Source of the DNA: Escherichia coli
Lineage (GTDB): Bacteria > Pseudomonadota > Gammaproteobacteria > Enterobacterales > Enterobacteriaceae
Reading direction: 5' to 3' (one strand)
DNA: 37,104 nucleotides
Assembly: GCF_003334315.1 (NCBI RefSeq)
Contig: NZ_QOWR01000047.1
The notes below the pieces were generated by a model. That model did not search any database. It worked only from the letters and a program-made list of their open reading frames with translations, and was not told the DNA's origin. The position numbers and the translations under genes were made by a program. Below, one piece after another: positions 1 to 37,104 of this stretch (position 1 is the stretch's first letter; each line of letters starts with the position of its first letter).

Positions 1-108
1 AGGCAGCACCTGGCACGGCTGGGACGGAAGTCGCTGTCGTTCTCAAAATCGGTGGAGCTGCATGACAAAGTCATCGGGCATTATCTGAACATAAAACACT
101 ATCAGTAA
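1..108 (+). CDS. insB: IS1 transposase InsB, C-terminal fragment (5' partial)
   Basis: Frame 1 from position 1 translates [35 protein letters not shown]-stop, which I recognise as the InsB C-terminus; stop codon at 106-108. Confidence 0.75.
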
Positions 109-123
109 GTTGGAGTCATTACC
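1..123 (+). mobile_element. IS1 insertion sequence, terminal ~123 bp including terminal inverted repeat (element continues off the left edge)
   Basis: Positions 1-123 match my recollection of the IS1 right end (...CTGAACATAAAACACTATCA-TAAGTTGGAGTCATTACC) almost base for base; element terminus ...GGAGTCATTACC ends at 123. No search run. Confidence 0.85.
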
Positions 124-198
124 GAAGGTGCGTTATATTAAACGCGCTTGCTATAAGAATATTTTACTCATGAGTGAGAATCTGGTTATTTATTACCC

Positions 199-438
199 TT
201 AACCATTATCGACCACGATATTGCTTTTACGTAACAGTGGGCAATCTGTTATCCCCAAGAAACCACTTTTAGTGTGCAAGTATTGTACCGTGCTGGTGCC
301 TCTGGCAGTCAGATAGGTACATTGCAAACCTAATCCTGCGGCATTCTCTTTGCTTCCAATCAAAACGCCATATCCGCTGAGTAATAATCCTATCCATACC
401 AGTGCTATCAGCATAACTGTGCGAATGATGAATCGCAT
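199..438 (-). CDS. yobH: small inner-membrane protein YobH (79 aa)
   Basis: ORF track 79 aa, hydrophobic N-terminus (MRFIIRTVMLIALVWIGLLLSGYGVLIG); position divergent from mgrB as in K-12. Confidence 0.8.
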   Translation of the reverse strand: MRFIIRTVMLIALVWIGLLLSGYGVLIGSKENAAGLGLQCTYLTARGTSTVQYLHTKSGFLGITDCPLLRKSNIVVDNG

Positions 439-596: not shown

Positions 597-740
597 GTGA
601 AAAAGTTTCGATGGGTCGTTCTGGTTGTCGTGGTGTTGGCTTGCTTGTTGCTTTGGGCGCAGGTATTCAACATGATGTGCGATCAGGATGTACAATTTTT
701 CAGCGGAATTTGTGCCATTAACCAGTTTATCCCGTGGTGA
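597..740 (+). CDS. mgrB: MgrB, 47-aa membrane peptide, PhoQ feedback inhibitor
   Basis: Manual translation from GTG at 597: [47 protein letters not shown]-stop (TGA 738-740). Below the 60-aa cutoff of the ORF track. Confidence 0.9.
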
Positions 741-814: not shown

Positions 815-1102
815 ATGAACGAAGTTGTAAATTCAGGCGTGATGAACATTGCGTCTTTGGTTGTATCGGTGGTGGTTCTTCTTATCGGGCTCATCTTGTG
901 GTTTTTTATCAATCGTGCCAGTTCTCGGACTAACGAACAGATTGAACTGCTTGAGGCGTTGCTGGATCAGCAAAAACGTCAAAATGCACTGTTACGTCGT
1001 TTGTGCGAAGCAAACGAACCTGAGAAAGCAGATAAAAAGACCGTTGAGAGTCAAAAATCGGTTGAAGACGAAGATATTATTCGTCTGGTCGCCGAACGAT
1101 AA
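815..1102 (+). CDS. yebO: small membrane protein YebO (95 aa)
   Basis: ORF track 95 aa with a single N-terminal TM segment and charged C-terminal tail; synteny mgrB-yebO-yobF-cspC. Confidence 0.85.
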   Translation: MNEVVNSGVMNIASLVVSVVVLLIGLILWFFINRASSRTNEQIELLEALLDQQKRQNALLRRLCEANEPEKADKKTVESQKSVEDEDIIRLVAER

Positions 1103-35285: not shown

Positions 35286-35789
35286 TTACGCAGTGCGGCG
35301 GAAATTGACCAGTTCTGGTTGCGCAATGCGCAAATAATCCGCGGTTTTCAAAATAACGGATTTATCCAGCATGCCTGCATTGAAGGCGATTTCATCAAAT
35401 CGTTCGAAGAGTAGAGGGTCGGCAACCAGTTTGAGTTTTGGATGGAAGCTGAAAGGGGGGATCGCGCCGAAGACACAGCCTGTGAGTTCATCGACTTCCG
35501 CCGGGCTGGCCAACGAAGCGCGTAATCCGCCTATATGGCTGGCGAGTTGGCTCAGATCGGCCTGTTGATCGGCTGCGAGGATCGCCAGAACATGTTGATT
35601 TACGCCATTGCCTTTGACTTTACATACCAGTGCCTTAGCACCCTGGCCTAGAGCGGTGCCACGAATTTCTGACACCGCTTCACATTTACCTACCGCTTCA
35701 TGGGTAACGACGCGGAAGTCAGCACCTTCTTGTGATAATAAAGCGATTAACCGCTGATGCGTCACGCTTCCTTTAGCCATTTCAGTCAT
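35286..35789 (-). CDS. yeaK: YbaK/ProX-type aminoacyl-tRNA deacylase YeaK
   Basis: 167-aa ORF; its stop codon abuts the yoaI stop. Confidence 0.85.
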   Translation of the reverse strand: MTEMAKGSVTHQRLIALLSQEGADFRVVTHEAVGKCEAVSEIRGTALGQGAKALVCKVKGNGVNQHVLAILAADQQADLSQLASHIGGLRASLASPAEVDELTGCVFGAIPPFSFHPKLKLVADPLLFERFDEIAFNAGMLDKSVILKTADYLRIAQPELVNFRRTA

Positions 35790-35831
35790 TTCACGCTCCT
35801 GAGATTACAAGCAAACAACCACAGAAGGTTA

Positions 35832-37027
35832 TCATGAACGGCTGTTTTTGTTCTGCTTATTGACATATAAACGCTCATCGGAAGCTTTATACGCATCATG
35901 TAACGTATCGTTTTCTTTCATCGCGTAAATACCGGAAGAGAAGCCGATCTCTTTCTGCGGCGCGATATGTTGCAGACGTTTTTCGATACGTTCAGGCAGT
36001 TGTGCTGCAATTTGCGGCGTCGAATCGACAAGAATGATGCAGAATTCATCGCCACCGAGTCGGATGGCATAATCACTTTTACGAATCGACTGTTTAATCG
36101 CCTGAGCTAATAACGTAATCGCTAAATCCCCCTCCTGATGACCGAGGGTGTCATTTATTTGCTTTAACTTGTCCATGTCAATAGCAATAAACATCACCGA
36201 AGAACCGGATTGCACCAGTTTCTGCAACCGCTGCTCCAGTTCAGGGGTTAAAATTTTGCGATTATACAGTCCAGTCATCGCATCACTAATATTTTCTCGC
36301 GACACATTTTGGTATAAACGGAAGTGCATCCGCACCATATTCAGCAAAATTAACGCCGTCAAAATCCAGAACAGAACGCTTTTCCACGAAGACGTGATAA
36401 AGTAAAGAATATCAATGGATAACGAGACACGAATGCCGCCCGGTAAGTCATGGACGTAACTGACATACTGGAACAGATTATCTTCGCTCTGGTTGATGAT
36501 AATGTCGCGCCCCGAATCGGTATCGGTTAGCGTGACATTGAGAAAACGCCAGAGGAGAGGGCGGTCATGAGTATAAAAGATATTCCGCAGATTGTTTTTG
36601 TTAATATCCAGCAGCACAATCCCTTTTAGCTGCCCTGCGACATATACCGGCGTCAGCAAACTCATCACGTTCTGTTTAGTACGCTGATCCTGGTAAATGC
36701 TCGACAATACGGTACGCCCGGTAAATACCTTTTCAATATCTTTGCGATCGATGCCAATACTTCCTGACTGCAGGAAGGACCAGTTATTCATCGCAAAGTA
36801 TTCAACATTAACCGGCTCATAAAAATAGACATAGCGGTCATTGAGATCGAGATAATAGTGAAATTTCTCTTCGGCCATCCCAAGACCTGAACCGTAATCA
36901 TCCTGGTGGCGGTTGCCTTCCACTGCCTGATCAAAAGCGGGTAATAGTGCTGCAGCTTCCACAATTGTGTCGCAGTCAGTGGATGCGGTTTGTAGTGTGC
37001 CGCGTAAGCCCGGGTATTTATGGGCAG
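35832..37027 (-). pseudogene. dgcJ: diguanylate cyclase DgcJ (YeaJ), 5'-truncated by an IS insertion
   Basis: GGDEF motif (RLGGDEFCIILV) and one TM segment. The ORF cannot extend upstream: stops occur in all three minus frames within 37039-37067, and the first 12 codons of the 410-aa track ORF are IS-derived. About 398 native codons remain versus about 496 aa recalled for K-12; a periplasmic-type sensor region with no upstream TM or signal peptide. Confidence 0.7.
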
Positions 37028-37104
37028 TGGATTGGCCCCTATATTTCCATACACTTTTTATCACTTAACCCATTACTGGTTCGCCGCCGCAGATATTCCC
37101 GTGG
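37028..37104 (-). mobile_element. IS3-family (IS2-like) insertion sequence, terminal 77 bp (element continues off the right edge)
   Basis: Minus strand reads ...PREYLRRRTSNGLSDKKCMEI-stop then GGTTAAGTGATAAAAAGTGTATGGAAATATAGGGGCCAATCCA, close to the IS2 OrfB C-terminus and right inverted repeat as I recall them (roughly 85% similar by eye, not identical). Terminus at plus 37028. Confidence 0.75.

Follow-up and report, generated by a model that had tools for sequence, protein, structure and literature searches.

The window, a stretch of 37,104 nucleotides of Escherichia coli DNA (NCBI RefSeq assembly GCF_003334315.1, contig NZ_QOWR01000047.1), consists of a segment of genomic backbone with a piece of an insertion sequence (IS) at either end (Table 1). 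Between positions 124 and 37028 it is colinear with E. coli K-12 at 99.62% identity and with no other large indel, and the best matches to this backbone are wild human and animal isolates, which are closer to it than K-12 is. Descent of the window from a K-12 laboratory strain was rejected on both grounds, an identity below 100% and the nearer wild isolates. At the left end, the terminal part of an IS1 gives way at 123/124 to the intergenic region of the convergent genes kdgR and yobH, 67 nt past the kdgR stop codon and approximately 500 bp from mgrB; the same kdgR-yobH site is empty in K-12. At the right end, the 3' part of the diguanylate cyclase gene dgcJ adjoins the terminus of an IS3-family element. 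With IS pieces bounding both of its ends, the window looks like a whole short-read contig that was broken at repeats, and a contig bounded in this way would imply that the source genome has at least two copies of the IS2-group element. A k-mer size of 77 is in common use by short-read assemblers. The overhang into the right-hand element measures exactly 77 nt but the overhang into IS1 measures 123 nt, and the match to the k-mer size may therefore be a coincidence.

The remnant of dgcJ is 1,196 nt long and lies on the minus strand at 35832-37027. Its identity as dgcJ is given by its sequence and by synteny with K-12, with which the window is colinear and which includes the downstream neighbour yeaK. 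A megablast of positions 35700-37104 against 5,426 complete E. coli genomes matched 35700-37028 to K-12 with 100% nucleotide identity and matched the same stretch at 100% in many further E. coli strains, while the final 76 bases of the query were covered by no record. Alignment to the K-12 gene (L001), which is 1,491 nt long, places the break directly behind nt 295, so that the window copy lacks 98 codons and 1 nt. The last native base of dgcJ is 37027; the BLAST match extends one base further because the T at 37028 is common, by chance, to native dgcJ and to the IS end. The first-pass annotation had set an IS-like terminus against dgcJ at 37027/37028 and had estimated that some 100 N-terminal codons were lost from the window copy. 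Both statements hold, the former on alignment to K-12 and to reference IS copies and the latter on translation of the remnant, which reproduces residues 100-496 of K-12 DgcJ exactly. Its description of the gene as 5'-truncated is correct for the copy in the window, which ends 77 nt into the element, so that the far side of the IS lies outside the sequence covered.

Full-length DgcJ has the architecture TM1 - GAPES1 - TM2 - GGDEF, which is not complete in the window copy. A Kyte-Doolittle scan identifies a single transmembrane segment in the remnant, corresponding to residues ~308-334 of the full-length protein (TM2), and finds TM1 (residues ~7-32) in full-length DgcJ only. Pfam models match the remnant over positions 70-274 of 274 for GAPES1 (E = 2.7e-111) and over positions 3-160 of 161 for GGDEF (E = 3.8e-40), and the GGDEF domain is intact, including its RLGGDEF motif. 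The earlier account of the remnant as a sensor region, one transmembrane helix and an intact GGDEF domain without TM1 is thus borne out, with the refinement that the GAPES1 periplasmic sensor is cut as well and has lost its first 69 model positions. Judged by its sequence, the window copy is a gene fragment and would not constitute a functional member of DgcJ.

Table 1. Features at the ends of the window and lesions of dgcJ in other E. coli genomes; positions refer to the window, or to the dgcJ gene where marked nt.
Feature	Position	Strand	Basis or source
IS1, terminal 123 nt	1..123	.	Alignment; 124 onward is the kdgR-yobH intergenic region
dgcJ, 3' part (nt 296-1491 including stop)	35832..37027	-	100% identity to K-12 dgcJ
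Hybrid ORF, 410 codons, GTG at 37064	35832..37064	-	ORF list and frame analysis
Predicted 5-bp target site, GGCAG on the plus strand, CTGCC in gene sense (dgcJ nt 296-300)	37023..37027	.	Inferred from the repeat AGAAT of L002
IS3-family element, IS2 group, ISEc27/ISEc36 type, terminal 77 nt (IRR side)	37028..37104	-	77/77 identity to L002, L003 and L037
IS1 in dgcJ	nt 991-999		MG1655-type genomes
IS5 in dgcJ	nt 359-367		EP91B
ISKpn26 in dgcJ	nt 694-697		Strain 63-2
IS1 in dgcJ	nt 238-246		Other assembly (an IS1 case, GCA_964046385.1, is among the dgcJ lesions)
Another IS in dgcJ	nt 319-328		Other assembly
Recurrent deletion in dgcJ	nt 313-379		L017, L024, L049
Deletion in dgcJ	nt 157-376		L016
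Duplication in dgcJ	nt 266-318		L040

The 77 nt beyond the remnant are identical at every position to the end of full-length IS copies (E ~1e-31) and form the transposase-distal end of a 1,331-bp element type. The reference copies are annotated by RefSeq/PGAP as 'IS3-like element ISEc36 family' on the E. coli plasmid pEC21Z147-62K-mcr1 (L002) and as 'ISEc27 family' in L003 and in APEC BEN2908 (L037), and the transposase CDS of such identical-ended copies is annotated with 'programmed frameshift'. On the minus strand the IS end reads ...PREYLRRRTSNGLSDKKCMEI-stop, comprising the last 21 transposase codons plus the stop at 37104-37039, and the stop codon itself (37041-37039) lies 11 nt in from the end of the element, which is also its place in the annotated CDS of the pEC21Z147-62K-mcr1 copy. 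The transposase is therefore co-directional with dgcJ. The terminal repeat ends ...CCAATCCA at 37028, from which position the element end reads TGGATTGG..., showing the TG...CA termini of the family. The plasmid copy, which is 1,331 bp long, has matching ends, TGGATTGG...CCAGTCTA, and is flanked by the 5-bp direct repeat AGAAT, and the left end of the element starts TAGACTGG in both reference copies. The copies labelled ISEc36 and ISEc27 show no difference in the 98 nt nearest to this end and diverge further in, and for this reason the 77 nt in the window cannot separate one from the other; assignment to ISEc27 alone or to ISEc36 alone was ruled out, as both are matched equally.

An IS3-family, IS2-group transposase C-terminus with a terminal repeat had been recognised in the last 77 nt by the first-pass annotation, and the identity to annotated copies confirms this. 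The stops that it reported in all three minus-strand frames of the IS end are likewise present: frame analysis locates them at 37041-39 in the transposase frame, at 37067-65 in the dgcJ frame and at 37075, 37063 and 37060 in the third frame. Its remark that the terminus resembles IS2 but diverges from it stands too, with 67/77 nt in common and 6/21 residues of the transposase C-terminus different, but the proposed 'variant or related element' can now be named as a catalogued type, and a new IS2 variant was rejected on the strength of the complete match. Like IS2 of E. coli K-12, the element type belongs to the IS3 family, is 1,331 bp long, has TGGATT...CCAGTCTA ends and, in the relative examined, is flanked by a 5-bp duplication; unlike it, the whole reference element is only ~81% identical to IS2. 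The ISEc36 and ISEc27 reference copies, in contrast, agree with the window in all 77 terminal nt and in the last 21 transposase residues, this end being the part of the element that the window contains. The 'ISEc27 family' copy of BEN2908 is itself a mosaic (L037:2501-3832 compared with L002:2501-3831 and L038:301-1631), in which 848 nt, counted from the transposase-distal end, match the ISEc36 type at 99.6% identity and the other ~483 nt match IS2 at 99.0%, a composition suggestive of recombination among elements of the IS2 group.

The frame of dgcJ remains open across the junction as far as the GTG at 37064, and the resulting hybrid ORF places 12 IS-derived codons (MIKSVWKYRGQS) in frame with DgcJ from Thr99 on. 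It is best regarded as a mechanical reading frame, the expression of which would be hypothetical. Automatic gene calling could yield an apparently intact GGDEF protein from this ORF. The possibility that a hybrid promoter had formed at the junction was rejected, since a consensus scan of 36700-37104 detected no sigma-70-like promoter on either strand.

Both sides of the insertion were looked for in sequence collections. The right junction, between dgcJ and the IS end, is absent from the 5,426 complete E. coli genomes, and exact searches of species-representative genomes (genome_contigs) and of metagenome_contigs returned no match to it. The left junction predicted for a simple insertion had no exact match in genome_contigs or metagenome_contigs either, a search that was made with the 5-G pattern only and which the 4-G form seen in BEN2908 would escape. 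At the protein level, an exact look-up of the 410-aa hybrid product in a public gene collection found none on record, and shorter gene calls of 348, 376 and 363 aa led to hundreds of unrelated contigs with dgcJ lesions, none of which carries this IS end. The C-terminal products of 348 and 376 residues alone are represented in ~500 index blocks each. An exact N-terminal DgcJ product of 100 aa occurs in 91 index blocks, compared with 46 and 37 for control products of 95 and 105 aa, respectively. The contigs that encode it were rejected as the partner junction on account of these controls and because ten inspected examples from unrelated samples (L006-L015) end in native dgcJ at nt 300-302. The 100-aa records are background from fragmentary assemblies. 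The approximately 2-fold excess of the 100-codon product over the controls may be noise or a breakpoint in a mixed population. The dgcJ junction described here is a new allele of a lesion type that is already known.

DgcJ is the specific source of cyclic di-GMP (c-di-GMP) for the glycosyltransferase NfrB, and its loss blocks infection by phage N4; both dgcJ::IS1 of MG1655 CGSC 7740 and a dgcJ deletion confer resistance to N4, sensitivity returns when dgcJ is restored, and some strains have dgcJ or nfrB disrupted by an insertion element, a deletion or a premature stop (Sellner et al. 2021, PMC8669472). NfrB is bound directly by DgcJ, which also has a share in the inhibition of motility in a pdeH mutant; loss of DgcJ relieves this inhibition in part (PMC8669469). 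The closest precedent for the present allele is the dgcJ::IS1 of MG1655 CGSC 7740 (U00096), in which the same gene is interrupted by an IS and from which the same outcome, no activation of NfrB and resistance to N4, would be expected by analogy. The two differ in agent and position: the K-12 lesion is a 768-bp IS1 with a 9-bp duplication situated between the sensor and the GGDEF domain, whereas here an IS2-group element is found at nt 295/300. Public assemblies (L016-L052) contain other natural E. coli lesions in which the same gene has been inactivated independently, at positions and by agents that differ from the present ones (Table 1); frameshifts and 1-nt indels in dgcJ occur as well, and some of the indels may be sequencing errors. 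Many of the independent lesions are concentrated in the 5' third of dgcJ. The present event is one among many such lesions and is in this respect ordinary.

The IS end is uncommon in E. coli, being found in 78 of the 5,426 complete genomes, and 77 of its 96 places in these genomes are on plasmids. It is widespread on plasmids of Klebsiella, Enterobacter and Escherichia, and ISEc36 is known from the literature on mcr-10 and blaIMI plasmids. Because Enterobacteriaceae carry the element type mainly on plasmids, a plasmid is the most likely source of the chromosomal copy.

The most likely reading of the locus is the simple insertion of a complete IS that gives rise to a null allele of dgcJ, for which the probability is put at roughly 0.8. 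It is proposed that a full-length element of the ISEc27/ISEc36 type, ~1.33 kb in size and most likely of plasmid origin, transposed into codon 99-100 of the chromosomal dgcJ in a commensal-type E. coli with a backbone 99.6% identical to K-12. The right end of the IS adjoins dgcJ nt 296, with the transposase oriented as the gene is. On the far side, the model would place the rest of a full-length element, a 5-bp duplication and the dgcJ promoter together with the first 300 nt of the gene. The target site GGCAG would be duplicated on that side, and the left junction would then read …CAGGGG(G)CCAGTCTA followed by GGCAG and TCAGGTTTAAGCCATGG. In gene sense, dgcJ nt 1-300 would be followed by the left end of the IS, the first bases of which are TAG, and this TAG would stop the N-terminal fragment immediately after residue 100, at a length of exactly 100 residues. 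The assembler would have been unable to resolve the repeated element, and the window would for that reason stop 77 nt into the IS. A null allele is predicted because the 3' part of the gene is cut off from its promoter and start codon and lacks TM1 and the beginning of GAPES1. Extrapolating from work on K-12, the loss of DgcJ would deprive NfrB of its local supply of c-di-GMP; cells lacking the surface glycan made by NfrB would be resistant to phage N4, and c-di-GMP-dependent braking of motility would be slightly relieved. Resistance to N4 is thus the phenotype to be expected of the present allele by analogy with these mutants.

Since the window ends inside the IS, its far side is unconstrained and might join another locus altogether, in which case the 5' end of dgcJ, and possibly cdgI, yeaH and sequence beyond, would have been deleted or inverted, either when two copies of the element recombined with each other or through an adjacent deletion. 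The contig break, which implies at least two copies, would supply the substrate for such recombination, and internal deletions of dgcJ do occur in other assemblies (nt 313-379 and nt 157-376). Transposition of IS3-family elements, however, results far more often in a simple insertion. Every other IS-interrupted dgcJ that was inspected has both halves of the gene flanking the IS with a target duplication, and nothing observed speaks positively for a deletion, which makes an IS-associated deletion or rearrangement unlikely. An artefact of assembly, with the 77-nt tail representing a chimeric contig end and dgcJ being intact in the real genome, would account for the coincidence of the tail with a common assembler k-mer size and for the failure to find an independent sequence with this junction. 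However, dgcJ meets the IS precisely at the outermost base of the element (TG...), which is where a true transposition junction lies, an overhang of k-mer length into a repeat is the normal sign of a real junction in de Bruijn assembly, and the left end of the window repeats the pattern with IS1; an artefact is accordingly extremely improbable.

The consequence of the insertion could also differ from a simple loss of function if read-through from the transposase, or an outward promoter in the IS end, led to expression of the 410-codon hybrid or of a shorter product, and so to a deregulated, N-terminally truncated DgcJ. IS2-group ends are known to contribute promoter elements, transposase and dgcJ are co-directional, the dgcJ frame is open from the GTG at 37064, and the intact GGDEF domain with its RLGGDEF motif makes residual activity conceivable. 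Against this, the scan of 36700-37104 gave no sigma-70-like promoter on either strand, and no convincing ribosome-binding site was found ahead of the GTG on reading the sequence. Without TM1, moreover, the GAPES1 remnant of ~200 residues would either be cytoplasmic or depend on TM2 inserting alone, so that both topology and contact with partners would be doubtful, and dgcJ::IS1 acts as a null for N4 infection, though at another site. Expression of a deregulated product is very unlikely on this balance. A further reading, also unlikely, is that the insertion was a selected event in which an IS typical of antibiotic-resistance plasmids silenced the DgcJ-NfrB glycan pathway and thereby conferred on this natural isolate resistance to N4-like phages or a gain in motility, or alternatively that the IS drives a constitutively active GGDEF fragment devoid of its sensor.

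With simple insertion as the preferred reading, the strain is best recorded as dgcJ-negative, and the gene remnant (35832-37027) is best annotated as a pseudogene and not as a diguanylate cyclase. The importance of the finding lies mainly at the level of annotation, and it makes no open question testable. The allele adds one further independent IS hit in a gene whose inactivation recurs in laboratory strains and in natural E. coli, and serves as an example of a plasmid-associated IS type colonising the chromosome. The recurrence is in line with published work that regards the DgcJ-NfrB pathway as costly or as selected against by N4-like phages.
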